Virus record (IMG/VR): IMGVR_UViG_2579778952_000005
Location: 1 to 11,814 of that record
Source: a virus
Lineage: Duplodnaviria; Heunggongvirae; Uroviricota; Caudoviricetes
Length of the DNA stretch: 11,814 nt
Reading direction: 5' to 3' (one strand)
Shown here one piece after another: positions 1 to 9,649 of this stretch. How positions within the stretch are numbered: the stretch's first letter is position 1; every line of letters starts with the position of its first letter. Under the pieces are notes generated by a model. The model was not told where the DNA came from. It worked only from the letters and a program-made list of their open reading frames with translations, and ran no database searches. Position numbers and translations under genes: made by a program.

Positions 1-69
1 CCGCGCAGACGATGACGTCACTGCCCGGCTGTATGCGCGAGGTTACCGACTGCGGCCTGAGTTTTTTAA
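1..69 (-). CDS. insB: IS1 InsB' N-terminal portion (expressed as InsAB' by -1 frameshift); truncated by window edge
   Basis: Slippery motif TTTAAAAAAC lies on the minus strand at 61-70. The -1 frame from it reads [22 protein letters not shown], matching the start of IS1 InsB. Confidence 0.8.
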
Positions 70-318
70 ATGGCGGAAAATCGTGTTGAGGCCAACGCCC
101 ATAATGCGGGCGGTTGCCCGGCATCCAACGCCATTCATGGCCATATCAATGATTTTCTGGTGCGTACCGGGTTGAGAAGCGGTGTAAGTGAACTGCAGTT
201 GCCATGTTTTACGGCAGTGAGAGCAGAGATAGCGCTGATGTCCGGCGGTGCTTTTGCCGTTACGCACCACCCCGTCAGTAGCTGAACAGGAGGGACAGCT
301 GATAGAAACAGAAGCCAC
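43..318 (-). CDS. insA: IS1 InsA (transposition regulator, N-terminal part of InsAB' transposase)
   Basis: 91-aa [46 protein letters not shown]...HLKNSGRSR matches IS1 InsA as I recall it, at exact length, with CxxC...CxxC zinc-finger motifs. Confidence 0.95.
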
Positions 319-351
319 TGGAGCACCTCAAAAACACCATCATACACTAAA

Positions 352-1479
352 TCAGTAAGTTGGCAGCATCACCTTAATATAAATCTGAGCCTGTTTGTAA
401 TACACGCCACCGATATTGTCTGCAGAGTTACGGCCAGTATCCTGAACATTAATGCCTGACAAAACACAACCAGAAGGTGCTCGAAACGTCCTGCTGTGCT
501 CGTTCCCGCCCGGGTTGTAAAACACCTCACTGGTATACTGAAAATTCTGTACGCCACCTGTTTTGGTCTGGTAGCGGGCATCAAAGTTTCCGTAGTCTGA
601 CGGTATAACCTGACGCCCGCATCGCCAGTTTCCCGCATCATCCATATACGCCTGACCGTCCGTACCATTATCCGTACGGCTATTATTTATCATGTAAATG
701 CCAAACTGCTCATTCCCAAGACCAGCCAGGAAATACTTTCTGTCTGCATGATCCTGACGCAGAAGCGCCTGAGCAGCATCAGTATTTATCCTGTTTTTCC
801 CGAAAATAACGTTGTTGTCACGCATCTGAATCCACGTTCCGTTACTGCTGTTAATCGCAAAACGGCCTGCAAATACATCTTCTGTAACATCCAGACCATG
901 TCCCATAGTTATGCGACCGGTCCTGAGATTAAGCGTAAAGGGGCGTAGCGGCCCAATATCACCACTCTCGCCCTGATTTTCCCGGGTAGGAATGAGGTGC
1001 AGACACTCTTCCGAACGACGAAAAATCAGACCAAAGGCTTCGTTGAAAATCCTCAGTGCATTAACACCACGGATTTTCAGCTCCCCGGTCATGGTGTCAC
1101 CATCACGCTGAACGGCATTTTTTGCCTTGTCCACCGTGGGTTTTAATCCGAGGTTTTCAACAGCCTCATCACTGTCTTCGACATCCGAAAGATTATTTTT
1201 TATCAGCAATGCCTCTTCGTTAATCGCACCGCCCACAAGTAATAATATGGCTTTATATAACTGGTCGTGTTCCTCTTTATTCAGTTTTATCCCGGCCTTC
1301 TCAATGACACCACCGATTTCCTCCTGAAGGGCATCCCACATGGCACTGTTCAGCCAGGTGGCATGACGCCCTGTACGAATATTCCCGTCAGTAAATCCGT
1401 TCTTGCCCGGGCCAAATTTATCTTTAACTGCTGTCGGAGTGTCAATTCTGTGCGTATTAAACCTCCCGTGAATGAAATA
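352..1479 (-). pseudogene. stf: Side tail fibre, C-terminal segment; 3' end replaced by IS1 sequence
   Basis: Frame is open from 1479 to the IS1 boundary at 373/374, then runs 6 codons into the IS1 IRL (VMLPTY) to a TGA at 352-354. Contains tail-fibre motifs AVQRDGDTMTGELKIRG and GNFDARY, similar to P2 gpH and lambda Stf-type fibres as I recall them. It is in frame with the upstream fragment but separated from it by TAA-TTC-TGA (1480-1488). First ATG is at 1341. Confidence 0.7.
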
Positions 1480-1485
1480 TCAGAA

Positions 1486-1794
1486 TTATGTCCTTGCCTT
1501 ATTAAACAATTCCGCTGTGAAAGTCAGTTCACCCTTTGTGAAAGGCGTTTCTCCGCCTGGCAGGGCCATAAAACTCTGTGAGACAGTCGTCCAGCTGTTT
1601 GTGTCGCTTTGTACGCCATTCTCTGTAATCGTTGCGCCTGCATGGCTGCCATTTTTCACTTTCCAGGCCAGGCAGTTATTGGGGGCATCAGCACCGCGGT
1701 AAGTGACCGAGGCCATAACAGCCACAACATCACTGTTGCTGTTATCCACCGCACCAAACGTGGCCTGTGCTGCATTCAGTGACGGCGAGAGCAT
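1486..1794 (-). pseudogene. stf: Side tail fibre, middle segment (frameshifted relative to N-terminal segment)
   Basis: 102-aa ORF whose start overlaps the stop of the N-terminal segment (TGATG at 1792-1796). Its beginning SPSLNAAQATFGAV continues the conserved fibre motif that the upstream segment starts (KGLVQLSSDTD), but in another frame. Confidence 0.6.
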
Positions 1795-2261
1795 CAGATA
1801 TCCGTATCGCTGCTCAACTGCACCAACCCCTTTTGGGTTGTGGTGGCATCCATTGTTCTTATGCTGTCGAAAATCTTCTTTACACTTTCTGCATATTCGG
1901 CTGCCGCTTCCGCATTCGCCCTGGCGTGAGACACCAGTTCCTCAAGGTGGATTATCACTTCAGGCCTGGCATTCTGCTCAGTGAATTTCAGTAAAAAATC
2001 ATTCAGCGCCCCAGGCTGAGAATCTTCGTAAACGGTGATGTCCCCTATATTCGATGGTGGATAACCATCAACCAACAGGGTGACGCTGTACTGTCCATAC
2101 TCAACGTCCATACTGTAACGCCCGGTTTCATCCGATCTGACTGAAGCTACAGTACTTGCCAGCACCGTGGTGCTGTGACGCCTTGCCGTCAGCTGAATGA
2201 TGCCATTCTGTATTGGTTTACCTGCACCGTCTTTCAGCACACCTGAAATCTTTACTGCCAT
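1794..2261 (-). CDS. stf: Side tail fibre N-terminal (tail-attachment) domain, 155 aa
   Basis: MAVKISGVLKDGAGKPIQNGIIQL...GRYSMDVEYGQYSVTLLVDGYPPS...ITVYEDSQPG closely matches the N-terminal domain of E. coli prophage side tail fibres (StfR type) as recalled. ATG at 2261 is preceded by GGGGAG. The ORF-track start at 2267 is a GTG two codons upstream. Confidence 0.8.
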   Translation of the reverse strand: MAVKISGVLKDGAGKPIQNGIIQLTARRHSTTVLASTVASVRSDETGRYSMDVEYGQYSVTLLVDGYPPSNIGDITVYEDSQPGALNDFLLKFTEQNARPEVIIHLEELVSHARANAEAAAEYAESVKKIFDSIRTMDATTTQKGLVQLSSDTDI

Positions 2262-2272
2262 ATTCACTCCCC

Positions 2273-2303
2273 AAACAAAAAAGGCACCATTTCTGGTGCC
2301 CTT
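2273..2303 (-). terminator. Rho-independent terminator between J and stf
   Basis: On the minus strand: stem GGCACC (2300-2295), loop AGAAAT, stem GGTGCC (2288-2283), followed by a T-rich run TTTTTTGTTT, immediately after the J stop codon. Confidence 0.6.
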
Positions 2304-2319
2304 ATCCAGGTTATAAAAT

Positions 2320-5300
2320 TCAACTGATACTGATACCTGCTGTTGATTTCTTCATCACCACAACCAGTAAATCGCTGATACTTGCTGTGGGATACCAGCC
2401 ATTTACCAGCCAGGCTGACACAGAAAATTCCAGCCTCATGTGACCGTGACCGGCAGGCATATCAATAACGCCACTGTAAATCAGCGTATTATCCAGCGCA
2501 GTACGGTTATAAATTTCAGCACCGTTTTTCCGCACTATCAGACGGCATGAGGAGTAAATATCAGTATGATTTCGCTCATGCTTAGCGCCGCTGAATGCCA
2601 CCGCCGGAATAACAATCTGTCGGTCAAACGGCTGATCGTCATAAATCCTGACGGTAATGGTCCCTGATGGCCACCGTTCCGGTGCACGGGAGTCCCGGGG
2701 GAAAGCTTTACCCACTGTTTTAACGAGATCGCCTTCAATCTGGTTCGCGGACAGTTTTCCCAGAACCCGGCAGTTCTTGTTAATCGTGACGTTGTTGAGC
2801 GTCCCGGCGTTCGCATTCACGTTACCGCTGATATCCGCATTTCTCGCCGTCAGTCGCCCGTCCGGTGTCAGGGAAAATGCCGGAGGATTGCCACCACTGG
2901 TAATGGTGGGGGCCGTCAGGCGTTTCAGGAACACGTCATTCATGAATATCTGATCACCCTGCGCCACAAACATCGGCGTTTCATTTCCGTTTGCCGGGTC
3001 AATAAACGCGATACGGTTAGCGGCAACCAGGAACTGGCTCAGTTTGCCTTCCTCCGTATCCTCCATGCTGAGGCCAAGCCCCGCGACATAATGTTTGCCG
3101 TCTTTGGTCTGCTCAATTTTGACGCCCCACATGGCATTCCATTTATCGTTGGCGTCCTTCCACTCTTTCGAAAACTCCTCCAGTTTGCTGGCGTTATCTT
3201 CCGTCAGCTCAAAGTTTTCCAGCAGTTCCTTGCCGAGATGCGTTTTATTGATCAACCCTTTATAAAAATTCAGATAACCTTCCGCATCATCGCTCGCCCG
3301 ACCAACGGCCTCCACAAATGCCGATTTACCAACGGTGTTCACGCTGCGGATATAAAAGTAATAATCATAACCCGGCTTAATATTGCTACTGGCGGCTATC
3401 CAGTACAGCGCCGTACCAAGATAACGCGCGCTGGTTTCAACCTGCCTGATATCGATAATCCGCTTTTCCGAGAACCAGAACTCAAACTGCACCGTCGGGT
3501 CATATACAGCCAGTTTCGGGACCGCTGTTATCTGAAAATACCCTGGTATCAGTTCAATAGTGACAGGCGCTGCCGGTGCCGCAATCCGGAACGATACCGA
3601 TGCCGGATCGCCCTGCTGCCCCCACGCATTTACCGCCCGGACCGTCAGCGTGTAACGCCCCAGCGCCAGTTGCCTGAAGCGGTATGTGGTTTCCGTCGTC
3701 CGGGCCGTGCTGACCAGCCGCTCACTGCCGTCATCCGCTGCCACGGTCAGGCGAAGCATAAAGCTCACGCCCTTCACCACCTTCGGTGTGTCCCATCGCG
3801 CCAGCACCTGATATTCCCCGCTGTCTGCAGTGACTTCTGCGGTCAGGTGCTGCACCGCTGGCGGCGTGACACCATTCACCGTGCCACTCTGTTCGCCGTC
3901 AAAGTGCGCCCCGTTATCCACGATGGCCTCTTTTTCCGGCACATGCTGCACGGCGGTGATGGCATACGTGCCGTCGTCGTTCTCACGGATACTCACGCAG
4001 CGGAACAGTCGCTGGCGCAGCGTCGGCAGCTTCAGCCCCCATACGCTGTATTCAGCAACACCGTCAGGAACACGGCTCACTTTTACCTTCACGCCGTCGG
4101 TGACGGACTGAACCTCCACGCTGACCGGATTGCCACTTCCGTCAACCAGGCTTATCAGCGTGGTACCGGAGGATGGCAGCGTGATTTCACGGTCGAGCGT
4201 CAGCGTCCGGGTCTGGCTGTTCACCGCCAGCACACGACCACCGGTGCTGATACCGGCATAGTCATCATCACAGATTTCAATAACATCGCCCGGTACATGG
4301 CGAAGCCCTTCTGCGCCGACGCTGAAATCCACGGTCTGCGTTTCCAGCAGTTCTGTTTTAATCAGCCACAGCCCGGCGCGGTGTGCCTGCCCCCGACTGG
4401 TACAGCCAAAGGCATCCATCTTCGTGACGTTACGACCGTAACGGGCAATGGCCTGCGTGTCCTCCACAAGCTCTGTCGCCGTCTCCCAGCCGTTATCCGG
4501 GTCAATCCAGTTCACCTCAACGGCATTATGGCGGTCCTTCAGGGCGCTGAAGCTGTAGCGGAACGGCGCGCCATCATCCGGCATCACCACATTACTGCGG
4601 TTATAGGTCCACACCTTATCTGATGGTCGGTCCTGCACGAACGTCAGCGTCTGCCCGTTCCATACCGGCATACAGCGCATCGCCGAGCAAAAATCACTGA
4701 GCACATCCCACGCCTTGCGCTGTGTGGTCAGGTACGCATTACAGGTAATGCGCGGCTCCGTGCCGCCAAAGCCATCCGGCACTGACTGGTCGCAATTCTG
4801 GCCGATGACATACAGCGCCCATTTATCCACATCCGCTGCACCAAGACGTTTCCCCATGCCGTAGCGCGGATGGGTCAGCATATCCCACAGACACCAGGCC
4901 ATGTTGTTGCTGTATGCCGGTTTAAACGTTCCGTCCCAGATACCGCTGTATTGTCGCGTCTGCGGGTTATAGTTCGACGGCACCTGCAGAATGCGCCCGC
5001 GCAGATGATAATTACGGCTCACCTGCTGGCTGCCGAACTGCTCCGAATCCACCTGCACGCCGACCAGTGCCGTGTTCGGGTAGCACTGTTTCACATCGAT
5101 GATTTCGGTGTATGACGACCAGAGCGTTTTGTTCTGCAGCTGGTCTGTGGTGCTGTCCGGCGTCATCCTGCGCATCCGGATATTAAACGGGCGCGGCGGC
5201 AGGTTACCCACCACCACCGAGGCCAGATACTGCGAGGTGGTTTTGCCTTTAATGGTGATGTCTTTTTCCGTCACCCAGCCACCGTTACGCTGTATCTGAA

Positions 5301-5715
5301 CCAGCAGGCGGACTTCCGATGGATTCCTGTCCCCCTTTGAGGTGGTTTCCACCAGTGCCTGCACACCGAAGGTAAAACGCAGACGGTCGATGTTTGCCGA
5401 CGTGATGGTCCGGGTGATCGGCGTATCATATTTCACTTCCGTACCCAGCACCGTCTCGGAGCCGGAGGATTCAAACCCCTCCGGCGGTGACTGCTCCTGC
5501 TCACCGGCCCGGAACACCACCGTGACGCCGGATATATTGGTATTCCCCTCACTGTCCAGCACCGGCGTACTGTTCAGCAGCACGCTTTTTAATCCATCCA
5601 CCGGACCTTCAACCGGCCCTTCGCTGATGGCATCGATCACACTCAGCAACTGCGTGGACTTCAGGTTGTCCTTCGCTTCGCGCGGGGTATGCCCCTTACT
5701 GCTGCCTTTACCCAT
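2320..5715 (-). CDS. J: Tail tip host-specificity protein J (central tail fibre), intact, 1131 aa
   Basis: 1131-aa ORF, within one residue of lambda gpJ length, lying directly downstream of I as in lambda. Identity rests on length and synteny; the sequence match to lambda J was not checked. Confidence 0.93.
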
Positions 5716-5775
5716 TCGTCATGCTCCATAAACGACAAAACCGCCCGGAGGCGGTTTCACATAAAATATTTTGCA

Positions 5776-6447
5776 TCATCGACCAATCACCACAACCTGA
5801 CCACCATCCCCTTCGTCTGCCGTGCTGATCTCCTGAGAAATCACGCGTGACCCCACGCGCATTTCACCGTACAGAACGGGCAGAACATTGCCCTGGGCAA
5901 CCATGTTATCCAGTGAGGAGAAATACGTGTTCTGCTTACCGTTATCCGTTGTCTGTGTACGGGGAGTTCTGGCTTTCGGTGCCAGCATCTGCGCCACACC
6001 ACCGAGCACCATACTGGCACCGAGAGAAAACAGGATGCCGGTCATACCACCGGCCCCAATGGCTGCCCCCCATGCTGCAAGGGTGGCTCCGGCGGTAAAG
6101 AATGATCCGGCAATGGCGGCTGCTCCCAGGACAATCTGGAATACACCACCTGACTTGGCCCCGGCGACTCTGGGAACAATATGAATCACAGCGCCATCAG
6201 GCAGAGTCTCATGTAACTGCGCCGTTAATCTGGACGTGCTGACGTCCCGCCCGGCAATCCGTACCTGATACCAGCCGTCGCTCAGTTTCTGACGAAACGC
6301 CGGGAGCTGTGTGGCCAGCGCCCGGATGGCTTCAGCCCCCGTTTTCACACGAAGGTCGATGCGGCGGCCAAATCGTTGCAAATCCCCGTAAAGGCAGATG
6401 CGTGCCATTCCCGGTGACGCCAGAGGGAGTGTGTGCGTCGCTGCCAT
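5776..6447 (-). CDS. I: Tail assembly protein I
   Basis: 223-aa ORF, the same length as lambda gpI, with a Gly/Ala-rich hydrophobic C-terminal half. Its start lies 103 nt inside the 3' end of K, the same out-of-frame overlap as in lambda. Confidence 0.92.
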   Translation of the reverse strand: MAATHTLPLASPGMARICLYGDLQRFGRRIDLRVKTGAEAIRALATQLPAFRQKLSDGWYQVRIAGRDVSTSRLTAQLHETLPDGAVIHIVPRVAGAKSGGVFQIVLGAAAIAGSFFTAGATLAAWGAAIGAGGMTGILFSLGASMVLGGVAQMLAPKARTPRTQTTDNGKQNTYFSSLDNMVAQGNVLPVLYGEMRVGSRVISQEISTADEGDGGQVVVIGR

Positions 6448-7088
6448 TTGTCGGTATACCTCTCTCGTTTACTCAGTTGTTCAGGAATATGGTGCAGCAG
6501 CTCGCCATCACCACAGTAAATGGCGGCATGATTCGGCACCGATGAACCAAAGCAGCACAGCAGCACGTCGCCAGGCTGCGCCTCTGTCAGTGCGACACGG
6601 TAAAAACCAGTCGCCTCCATATTGTCAAGATAGAGATTCTGACCGTTACGCCACCAGTCATCCCCGCGATGAAAATCCGGCATCTCAATCCCCGCCAGAT
6701 GATAAGCATCCCGGAACAGCGTGTAACAGTCCGTCACCCCGTGCTCAAAGCGACGCCCGGTGAGATGCGGCACACAGCGGAACTTGTGAATCGCCCCCCG
6801 GCAGACCAGCCACCACGGCAAATCACTCTGCACCTGCAGCCGCCGGTCAGCATCACTCAGCCAGGGCAGACCTCCGGGGTGGCTGTGGACCAGCGCCACA
6901 ATCTCACCCTGCATTTCTGCCTGCAGCCAGTCTTCCGGCGACATACGGAAATACGCCTCCGGCTCACCGGAGATATTCACGCAGGGAAAATATCTTTCCC
7001 CCTCCGGCGTGCTTACCACGAAGCCGCACGACTCCGCTGGCGCACATCGCCGGGCGTGCGCCAGAATCGCTGATTCTGTCTCTGTCAT
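6345..7088 (-). CDS. K: Tail assembly protein K (JAB/MPN plus NlpC/P60 domains)
   Basis: Contains a JAMM-type motif HSHPGGLPWLSDAD and an NlpC/P60-like Cys/His region (GVTDCYTLF, PNHAAIY). Start chosen at ATG 7088 (MTETES...). The ORF-track start at 7163 is a GTG overlapping L. The classical 199-aa lambda K would start at the internal M at 6944. Confidence 0.85.
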   Translation of the reverse strand: MTETESAILAHARRCAPAESCGFVVSTPEGERYFPCVNISGEPEAYFRMSPEDWLQAEMQGEIVALVHSHPGGLPWLSDADRRLQVQSDLPWWLVCRGAIHKFRCVPHLTGRRFEHGVTDCYTLFRDAYHLAGIEMPDFHRGDDWWRNGQNLYLDNMEATGFYRVALTEAQPGDVLLCCFGSSVPNHAAIYCGDGELLHHIPEQLSKRERYTDKWQRRTHSLWRHREWHASAFTGICNDLAAASTFV

Positions 7089-7092
7089 GGGA

Positions 7093-7716
7093 TTACTGCG
7101 AAAGTTTGTTAATGGAAAGGAAGCCGCCAAAGTTGCCGACGTTATTGCGAAACTTACAGCCACTCAGGCATTTGCTGCATTTATCTTTCGTGATATCGGA
7201 CGTCGGCTGGTCATATTCATCCGCGACAGCCGGACCGCTATAACCGCACTCGTCACCGCGATAGGTCCAGGTGCAGGTGTTGGCCAGCATGATACGTCCC
7301 GGAAAAACAGCGCCATCCGTTTCCGTCGGCGTGGACAGTACAAAGGAGGCACTCACCGCGCTCAGTTCGCTGCACTGCTCAATGCGCCAGCGGCTGATCA
7401 CCTCCTGCTCCGGATCGGCGTCACTGTTTCCGTTGACGAAGTTCACCGCATCCAGAAAACAGGCGTAAACCTTACGCCGGACCACCGTTCCGCCGACCAG
7501 ACTCTGCAGATCTTCCGCCATCCCGGTGACCATACCGTACAGGTTAGAAACCGTCAGCGTGGGGCGCGTACTGGTGCCTTTGCCATTCAGTTCAAAACCA
7601 CTCCCCTGAATGGGATACGGCTGATACTGTCGCCCCTGCCAGGTGACCGGCTCACCTTTTTCGTTCTGCTCATTACAGAAAAAATAACGTTCTCCACCGA
7701 CCTCTGTCAGGTCGAT
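7093..7716 (-). pseudogene. L: Tail tip protein L, 5'-truncated (lacks about the first 25 codons and its start)
   Basis: Frame reads [37 protein letters not shown]...MVTGMAEDLQSLVGG...CSKCLSGCKFRNNVGNFGGFLSINKLSQ, matching lambda gpL from about residue 26 to the end, including the C-terminal Cys cluster. Upstream, the frame hits TAA at 7726-7728 inside V-derived sequence. First ATG is at 7533. Confidence 0.85.
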
Positions 7717-8200
7717 TTGCCGCTGTTACCGTGCTGCGATCTTCTGCCATCGACGGACGGCCCACATTGGTGACTTTCACCGTGCGGGTGATCACTTCCT
7801 TCGCCGTCACCGCCTTACCGATACTGCTGACCCAGCCACGGAACACATCGACCGTGCCGTTCGGGAAGCGGATTTTATAGGCACGGGTATCGCCTTCATT
7901 AAACCACGCCAGCAGCGCCTGCTGCCCCTGCTCTCCGGGCATCCACGCCAGCGTGAAGCTGGTATCTCCGGCAGATTTCTGCCCCTGCCCGGTCGCAGTC
8001 CAGTCTGCATCTTCATCATCGAGATAGCTGTCGTCATAGGACTCAGCGGTCAGTTCGCCGGGCGTCAGGTCTTTAACTTTTGCCAGACGCGACCAGTCAA
8101 CGTCTGAAAGCGGATTCGCATAAGGGTCACCGCTCCCCTTATAAACCCACAGGGTGGTCCCGGCACCTTTCACCGGCATTGTAGGATTTGGTACAGGCAT
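7673..8200 (-). pseudogene. V: Major tail protein V, 3'-truncated (residues 1 to about 161, then 14 out-of-frame codons)
   Basis: [45 protein letters not shown]...RSTVTAA matches lambda gpV as recalled. After codon 7720-7718 the sequence becomes L-derived and the frame ends [18 protein letters not shown]. ATG at 8200 is preceded by GAGGA and lies 7 nt after the U stop. Confidence 0.85.
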
Positions 8201-8207
8201 AGCGTCC

Positions 8208-8603
8208 TCACATTTCATAGGTAATGACATAAGTCATATCGGCTGAACTCCACAGGCCCGCATCATCGTCGCGCCGGTAGTCATAGCCACTGACCACCAT
8301 ACTGGTGATCAAATCTGACAGTGCCGGGATATCGCTCATCACCGGATAAATCCGGGACTCCATCCACGCATCCAGCTCTGAATTCGGCACCTGAGCAGGC
8401 AGGAAAACTTCGATATGCAGCTCCGCCTGCCAGGTATCGCTGTCCAGCTCTTCGCCCGTGTATTCAGCGCCGGTGAGATAAACGGCAACTGCCGGAAAAT
8501 CCGCCTCATCAAAAACAGCGGGGCGACCATCAAAAAACGTCGCCCCGGTGTCATGCTTCTCCAGTGCATCCAGTACGGCTGCACGGAGTTCAGTATGTTT
8601 CAT
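8208..8603 (-). CDS. U: Tail terminator protein U
   Basis: 131-aa [53 protein letters not shown]... matches lambda gpU at the same length. Its ATG overlaps the upstream stop in an ATGA arrangement, as for Z-U in lambda. Confidence 0.93.
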
Positions 8604-9649
8604 CGCTTTATTACCATCCTCAGTTGATGCTGCAGCGCATAGCCCAGCTCTTTCGGAAGACGTTCACGCCGTATCCGCTCAATATTCTGTTTAAACGCCG
8701 TGGTCAGCGGCACCGCCATCGGGATTTTCACCACATCAATGGGGTAACGGTTTTTCCCGGCCACACGCTGCATAACATGCCACCGGCCGTTTTTCAGTTG
8801 CTGAATAAACGCGCCGGGAATACGACGGTTACCCACCACAAGCACGCTGCCGCCACCTTTCAGGGATGAACGCTGCCCCTTTTTACGACGCCTGCGGCGG
8901 GACAGGACAACCCGCGCATTACCCAGCTTGATTACGGGCAAATCCCCCCGGTTAACTTTGATTCTGGCCTGCGGATTTTTGACCGTGGCCCTTTTCAGCC
9001 TGGCCCTTTCCTTTACCAGTTTCCGGCGTACCTTTGTCTCACGGGCAACCTGTGACGCAGACTGCGATATCGCGGATGAAGCAACGCGGTTATCCTCATC
9101 AAAGGCAGCAAGTTCATCATAACCCGCCACATCCACTGACTTTTCACGGTAGTTTTTTGCCGCTTTACCGCCCAGGCACCAGAAGCCACGCCCATTGGTG
9201 AAACGCTTCATGGTGAGCGTGTTATCCCGGTGCTTTTTGCCATACCACGGGGCCAGCGCCAGCAGCGACGGAATATCACGAATAGTCGGCTCAACGTGGG
9301 TTTTCATAAAGTTCTCGGCATCACCATCCGTCGGCAACCAGATAAGGGTGTTGCGCTGCTTATGCTCTATGAAGTAGGCATAAACACCCAGCAGCATTTT
9401 GGAATAACCAACACGGGCAGACTTCACCACATTCACCTCGCGGATGTAGTCACTGCCCATCGCATTCATGATGGCCCGCTGAAAGGGCAGTGTTTCCCAG
9501 CGCCCTTCCTGGTATGCGGATTCTTTCGGGAGATAGTAACTGGCATCCGCCCATTCAACGGCAGTCTGTGGCTCCGGCCTGAACAGGGCTCGCAGCCCGG
9601 CGCGTACATCACGCCGCAGAATATCAATCTGACTGTTCGATATATTCAC
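8600..9649 (-). pseudogene. In-frame fusion: terminase large subunit A N-terminus (about 185 aa) joined to tail completion protein Z C-terminus (about 163 aa)
   Basis: Residues 1-185 (MNISNSQ...VVKSARVGYSK Walker A...DVAGYDELAAFDE) match the lambda gpA N-terminus. Residues 187-349 (NRVASSAISQSASQVARETKV...LRMVIKR) match lambda gpZ from about residue 30 to its C-terminus. GTG start at 9649 overlaps the Nu1 3' end by 26 nt, as in lambda. Confidence 0.85.

Follow-up and report, generated by a model that had tools for sequence, protein, structure and literature searches.

The window (11,814 nt, the whole stretch analysed) is the entire draft contig JMGQ01000081.1 of assembly GCA_000687125.1. One contig end cuts a copy of IS1, whose left inverted repeat (IRL) abuts a phage tail fibre gene; behind this gene the window continues into the remains of a lambdoid prophage. 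At and around the junction we find the following features:

1..373, minus strand: partial IS1 (373 of 768 bp, IRL side), 100% identical to R100 IS1
43..318, minus strand: insA, coding for the zinc-finger/HTH regulator next to the IRL, 91 aa with a GTG start, in the same orientation as the fibre gene
351..373, minus strand: left terminal inverted repeat of IS1, outermost 23 nt GGTGATGCTGCCAACTTACTGAT, identical as reverse complement and abutting the fibre gene at 373/374
374..382, no strand: TTAATATAA, the 9 bp flanking the IRL, presumed copy of the target site, 9/9 A/T
352..375, minus strand: new C-terminal tail of the fibre, K-VMLPTY-TGA in place of NGAWRSVSG-stop, from translations and sense-strand comparison
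352..1341, minus strand: fibre ORF from its first ATG, 329 aa, WP_248785389.1, ending ...GGVYYKQAQIYIK-VMLPTY-stop
352..1455, minus strand: fibre coding region (Mu gpS/phiP27 type), from the ancestral start position to the IS1-borne stop
1453..1455, minus strand: ancestral fibre start codon, now ACG, which in relatives is an ATG behind GGGAGG
Outside the window: missing part of IS1, 395 nt, which would carry most of insB' and the IRR (GGTAATGACTCCAACTTATTGAT)

Over its whole length, the segment 1-373 shows 100% identity with R100 IS1 and with at least 5000 plasmid records; in the complete 768-bp copy of R100 (L016, 106-873) it corresponds to the 373 nt on the IRL side. An identity of 373/373 that ends on the terminal nucleotide of IS1 cannot be due to chance. 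The element has the IRL terminus, the insA gene and the AT-rich flanking 9-mer in common with R100-type IS1 (annotated by PGAP as "IS1-like element IS1B family"), but only its IRL half lies in the contig. The insA ORF (43..318, minus strand) matches the NCBIfam model NF033558, transpos_IS1, with E=1.8e-25 at positions 1-81 of 199, and also NF050000, the IS1 zinc-binding domain. A repeat search of the window detected no second piece of IS1, and neither this search nor Rfam returned anything relevant to the junction within the window. As the contig stops inside IS1, the other end of the element, the target duplication and the tail fibre assembly gene tfa fall outside the visible sequence. The position of the contig end would be explained by short-read assembly failing across a multicopy repeat.

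The sequence-only reading had set the IRL against the fibre frame at 373/374, and this boundary is exact by sequence, as is every other coordinate it gave. In the megablast alignment, homology to the fibre gene seemed to begin at 367; we rejected this boundary as a spurious gapped extension into the IRL, since the break falls at 373/374 when the sequences are compared directly. In sense orientation, the window has ...CAG ATT TAT ATT AAG GTG ATG CTG CCA ACT TAC TGA. The AAG lysine codon is a hybrid, with AA contributed by the fibre gene (375-374) and G by IS1 (373), and the TGA stop of the chimeric ORF is located at 354-352, inside the IRL. Translation of ORF 352..1341 thus bears out the proposal that the fibre frame passes through six IS1 codons (VMLPTY) before it terminates. 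A small annotation caveat follows for RefSeq, where WP_248785389.1 is listed as a plain "phage tail protein" though its last seven residues are IS1-encoded. Read inward, the IRL end closes every reading frame in the first 27 nt (TGA at IS1 positions 3-5, TGA at 20-22 and TAG at 25-27), and any gene entering IS1 at the IRL end gains at most eight IS1-encoded residues.

The uninterrupted allele is available from three complete E. coli genomes, E400634, E500002 and E600003, in which window positions 374-11814 are present in one colinear piece and without IS1. Compared base by base with E400634, the 11,441 non-IS1 nucleotides of the window show one difference, T in the window versus C at position 8384; this SNP falls in a gpU-like gene (8208..8603). 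The empty site of E400634 is found at about 2850650-2850760 of NZ_CM128600.1. Here the corresponding sense sequence is ...CAG ATT TAT ATT AAT GGT GCA TGG CGA TCT GTA TCA GGT TAA ttaaggagaaaataATG..., so that relative to the IS1-free allele nine native residues (NGAWRSVSG) have been replaced by seven (KVMLPTY), and the insertion point lies 27 nt upstream of the native fibre stop. The earlier suggestions that IS1 sits at the extreme 3' end of the fibre gene and that only few native residues were lost are both borne out by the empty-site allele of the three near-identical genomes. Few as they are, the lost residues include the terminal motif [N/D]G[A/T]W..V, which is present in the IS1-free allele and absent from the window's fibre, which has KVMLPTY instead. 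An ending of the form [ND]G[AT]W..V.. was found in 118 of the 120 homologues, and the same type of ending occurs in Mu gpS, in P2 gpH and in PDB entry 9cuy_c (...KKVNGVWVTITG).

The nonamer beside the IRL, TTAATATAA, is single-copy in the window as well as in the E400634 locus (L005, position 8001). The AT fraction within +/-20 nt of this target amounts to 0.60, versus 0.466 for the non-IS1 part of the window. IS1 is 768 bp long, produces duplications of 8-9 bp and recognizes no target motif beyond an AT-rich preference (PMC12428005, PMC5009759); being 9/9 A/T in a locally AT-rich setting, the 9 bp at 374-382 fit this documented preference and deserve the description as a typical AT-rich IS1 target that they had received from sequence inspection. 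In mutation-accumulation lines, new insertions of IS1A and IS1B numbered 236, IS-IS recombinations or deletions 44 (PMC5009759, Table 1). Direct comparison further showed E400634 to be free of IS1 for 8 kb to each side of the empty site.

From the mutation-accumulation priors, the clean AT-rich flank and the IS1-free surroundings of the site in the closest relative, we favour the reading that an R100-type IS1 transposed by simple insertion into the all-A/T 9-mer of a Mu gpS/phiP27-type fibre gene, to which we assign a probability of about 0.8. IS1 would have landed in TTAATATAA, 27 nt before the fibre stop, with its IRL toward the body of the gene. If the transposition was simple, IS1 should be a complete 768-bp element that extends past the contig, followed by a second copy of TTAATATAA (9 or 8 bp long), the 27-nt stub of the fibre gene and tfa. 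The IRR should thus lead into TTAATATAA, in full or as 8 bp, with TGGTGCATGGCGATCTGTATCAGGTTAA and tfa behind it; on the plus strand of the window, IRR plus flank should appear as CGCCATGCACCATTAATATAAGGTAATGACTCCAAC, or as the variant with an 8-bp duplication.

The empty-site allele also tells what would lie on the far side of such an insertion. Here, an intact tfa gene of 176 aa (Caudo_TAP, PF02413, E=1.1e-21) starts 14 nt after the fibre stop, and its Shine-Dalgarno sequence lies beyond the point where IS1 inserted. A simple insertion would therefore separate the fibre gene from tfa. The sequence-only reading had expected IS1 to part stf from a downstream tail-fibre assembly gene; tfa is indeed found just downstream in the empty site and would be split off by a simple insertion, but the disrupted gene is not a lambda-type stf (see below). 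The exact Tfa protein of the empty site was found in 748 blocks, with GCA_000687125.1 not being among the 10 places listed.

With the other IS1 end beyond the contig, the same junction might also arise by an IS1-mediated adjacent deletion, an inversion or an IS1-IS1 recombination. No target duplication would then be present, and tfa, possibly together with DNA toward potB, would have been lost or moved. IS-associated deletions without duplications are frequent (PMC11708052), and recombinations or deletions made up about 16% of the IS1 events in the mutation-accumulation lines (PMC5009759, Table 1). Simple insertions, however, outnumbered them by about 5:1 in that data set (PMC5009759), and the flank beside the IRL is a textbook all-A/T 9-mer. 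Recombination between two IS1 copies would in addition have lacked a pre-existing partner in the neighbourhood, as follows from the 8 kb free of IS1 to each side in the nearest relative. We therefore regard a rearrangement of this kind as unlikely.

Another type of event to be considered is that this IS1 is one of the two bounding a larger composite element of the Tn9 or Tn1681 kind, in which case several kb of cargo, and not 768 bp, would lie between fibre gene and tfa. Among the close relatives of the locus are the strains ETEC6 and B7A, the ST-toxin transposon Tn1681 is flanked by IS1, and an identical IS1 flanks catA1 in R100. None of this constitutes positive evidence for a composite element at the site; moreover, single IS1 insertions are far commoner than composite transpositions, and a contig stop at 373 nt is what would be expected for any multicopy IS1. 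A composite element is thus very unlikely in our view. Taken as a whole, it seems improbable that the visible IS1 end is the edge of any larger IS1-driven event in this enteric E. coli lineage, whether tfa and DNA toward potB were removed by deletion or inversion or a composite transposon brought cargo into the prophage remnant.

The junction of IS1 and the fibre gene is known from one draft contig only, which raises the question of a chimeric assembly in which fibre reads were joined to IS1 reads without any IS1 being present at the site. A random mis-join would not be placed exactly at the terminal nucleotide of the IRL and beside an all-A/T 9-mer. Where short reads are assembled, a true insertion normally shows itself by contigs that stop within an IS, as this one does. 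We give almost no credence to an artefact, and return to a simple insertion of IS1 as the preferred reading.

An insertion of this kind can be placed in time by asking how widely it is distributed. Not one of 5426 complete E. coli genomes searched by megablast has a place that covers both the IS1 and the fibre part of the query, and among about 15 billion proteins the chimeric protein is encoded on one contig only, that of the window itself. Exact-pattern scans of species-representative genomes, a set that does not include the source assembly, gave no match for the observed junction and likewise none for the predicted second junction (...CGCCATGCACCA-TTAATATAA-GGTAATGACTCCAAC..., plus strand). 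Given the private junction and the single SNP that separates the locus from an IS1-free relative, we consider the transposition a recent and strain-specific event in one E. coli strain. It is a clean and datable private insertion of IS1, in a locus that differs from an IS1-free relative by one SNP in 11.4 kb, and might be used to mark the strain.

The gene hit by IS1 encodes a tail fibre with a full-length match to PHROG 6859 (phrog_6859, tail fiber, E=2.6e-166), while Pfam and NCBIfam searches assigned no family to it, Pfam being negative for the intact allele too. Residues 128-374 align with 268-502 of the 504 residues of Mu tail fiber protein S in PDB entry 5YVQ_A (E=1.6e-73), a structure of gpS solved together with the N-terminal domain of its Tfa, gpU. 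The alignment comprises the C-terminal ~250 residues and proceeds to the very end, ...VQKNINGTWYNVA in Mu gpS versus ...AQIYINGAWRSVSG, and a Caudo_TAP-type tfa is found directly downstream in the empty-site allele just as in Mu. The two fibres differ in length (504 aa in Mu gpS, 375 aa here), the N-terminal part of ours being of the shorter phiP27 type, and Mu gpS keeps the terminal motif whereas the fibre of the source strain has IS1-encoded residues in this position. The top-ranked phage record is the putative tail fibre of the Stx2e phage phiP27 (AJ298298), with 60% identity over residues 1-374; phiP27 is one of only three among 50,697 phage records that cover at least 80% of the fibre protein. 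It is, however, a complete phage, whereas the fibre gene described here belongs to a prophage remnant adjoining potB.

The sequence-only reading had likened the residues preceding the junction to the C-terminus of P2 gpH-type fibres. This likeness is real at the motif level: the last 69 residues of P2 gpH align end-to-end with the fibre (25% identity, pairwise E=2e-4), and both proteins carry GNFDxRY ... QxYINGxWxxV, P2 gpH ending in ...AIFRPIQKYINGTWYNVAQV and its terminal motif in ...IQKYINGTWYNVAQV. It is nevertheless weak and emerges only in a separate comparison of the two tails; full-length BLASTP yields just a 28-residue shaft motif, and gpH, with 669 aa, has a different N-terminus. The relationship extends to the assembly protein, P2 gpG being 29% identical to the Tfa of the empty site (E=5e-21). 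Judged by these alignments, Mu gpS is the closest characterised relative of the fibre, far closer than P2 gpH, and we classify the gene as a disrupted member of the Mu gpS/P2 gpH-type, Tfa-dependent fibres. Lambda Stf was considered as well and rejected, because both the fibre ORF and its intact allele lack PF08400 (phage_tail_N). As in lambda, the locus sits after gpJ, but PF08400 is confined to a separate truncated ORF (1794..2267), and the fibre hit by IS1 belongs, unlike lambda Stf, to a myoviral module that is joined at about 1804.

Mu Tfa binds the distal moiety of the fibre and stays in the virion, as PMC9608196 describes with reference to the 5YVQ work. With Tfa at the distal fibre tip, the lost nonapeptide would be the most conserved part of the region facing chaperone and receptor. 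An AlphaFold2 monomer prediction for the intact fibre scored too low to be of use (mean pLDDT 33.4, pTM 0.20) and no structural claim is drawn from it; a trimeric fibre fold with a Tfa-bound distal tip is put forward as putative, from the homology to 5YVQ.

The fibre gene had been damaged before IS1 arrived. Its start codon is preceded by GGGAGG and reads ATG in eight of the nine related loci examined, but is ACG in the window. The same ACG is found in the IS1-free genome E600003 (L008), and consequently the loss of the start must predate the insertion. PGAP rescues the ORF by means of an upstream ATT start (1473-1471), which leads to a 375-aa "phage tail protein". Decay is also evident in the sequence surrounding the fibre gene:

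1486..1794, minus strand: 102-aa ORF, the C-terminal part left of a 349-aa protein encoded ahead of the fibre in Mu-like baseplate modules (phrog_8291, positions 248-349 of 349)
1794..2267, minus strand: truncated N-terminal domain of a lambdoid side-tail fibre, 157 aa (PF08400, E=1.8e-53)
7093..7533, minus strand: gpL without its N-terminus
7673..8230, minus strand: truncated tube protein (V), directly followed by the truncated gpL
8600..9649, minus strand: GpA::Z fusion ORF, 349 aa, N-terminus of the terminase large subunit ATPase plus gpZ

In loci that retain the myoviral module its gene order is Baseplate_J, Mu Gp48, the 349-aa protein, a 369-aa fibre and Tfa, and an intact 349-aa gene is found downstream of Baseplate_J/Mu Gp48 in three of them (L007, L009 and L011). 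The module adjoins potB in B7A and several other genomes and occupies other chromosomal sites in some. In the host locus, the last three myoviral genes are joined out of frame to the lambdoid prophage, the lambdoid stf N-terminus meeting the last 102 codons of the 349-aa gene at about 1804, within a junction region of about 1792-1810; the counterpart of ORF 1794..2267 in E400634 is annotated by PGAP as "incomplete; missing C-terminus". Given that homology to the myoviral module is restricted to window positions 374 to 1804 and that the 349-aa gene is reduced to its last 102 codons, fibre gene and tfa can be regarded as the stub of an older myoviral prophage of which no baseplate is left. The lambdoid part has large internal deletions: it contains no portal, head, G/T, tape measure or M genes, the IS1-free relatives have the same deleted state, and in IS1-free E400634 the terminase L, Z, V, L and stfN genes carry PGAP pseudogene flags. 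By its gene content, we consider the host locus a non-functional prophage mosaic. A myoviral fibre/tfa stub on a gutted lambdoid prophage illustrates prophage decay, in a form that is not novel.

With the fibre start codon already lost and the prophage already a remnant, the insertion of IS1 was most likely without phenotypic effect and selectively neutral, as the decay of the gene suggests. It is an ordinary event of a kind already known, in which a known element does a known thing in a decayed prophage. The insertion itself matters little, but it makes plain why contigs of draft assemblies stop at IS elements.

The right end of the contig is located inside a gene as well. According to the colinear annotation of E400634, window positions 11752-11814 belong to an M15-family metallopeptidase (endolysin) gene, which extends from 19379 to 19756 in the E400634 locus (L005), the window ending at 19441; this end is probably another assembly break at a sequence common to lambdoid prophages. 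An inverted repeat with 25-nt arms, 84% complementary, and a 5-nt loop is present at 10194-10248, in the cos-proximal region, 25 nt upstream of the start of the Nu1 terminase small subunit gene. Beyond the window, the E400634 locus contains a series of short fragments in both orientations between tfa and potB (L005, 5610-7373), consisting of tail-fibre, tfa and DUF4376 pieces together with a SAM-dependent methyltransferase. These fragments may derive from former alternative fibre-tip cassettes or from an invertible segment, as in Mu, P1 or e14.
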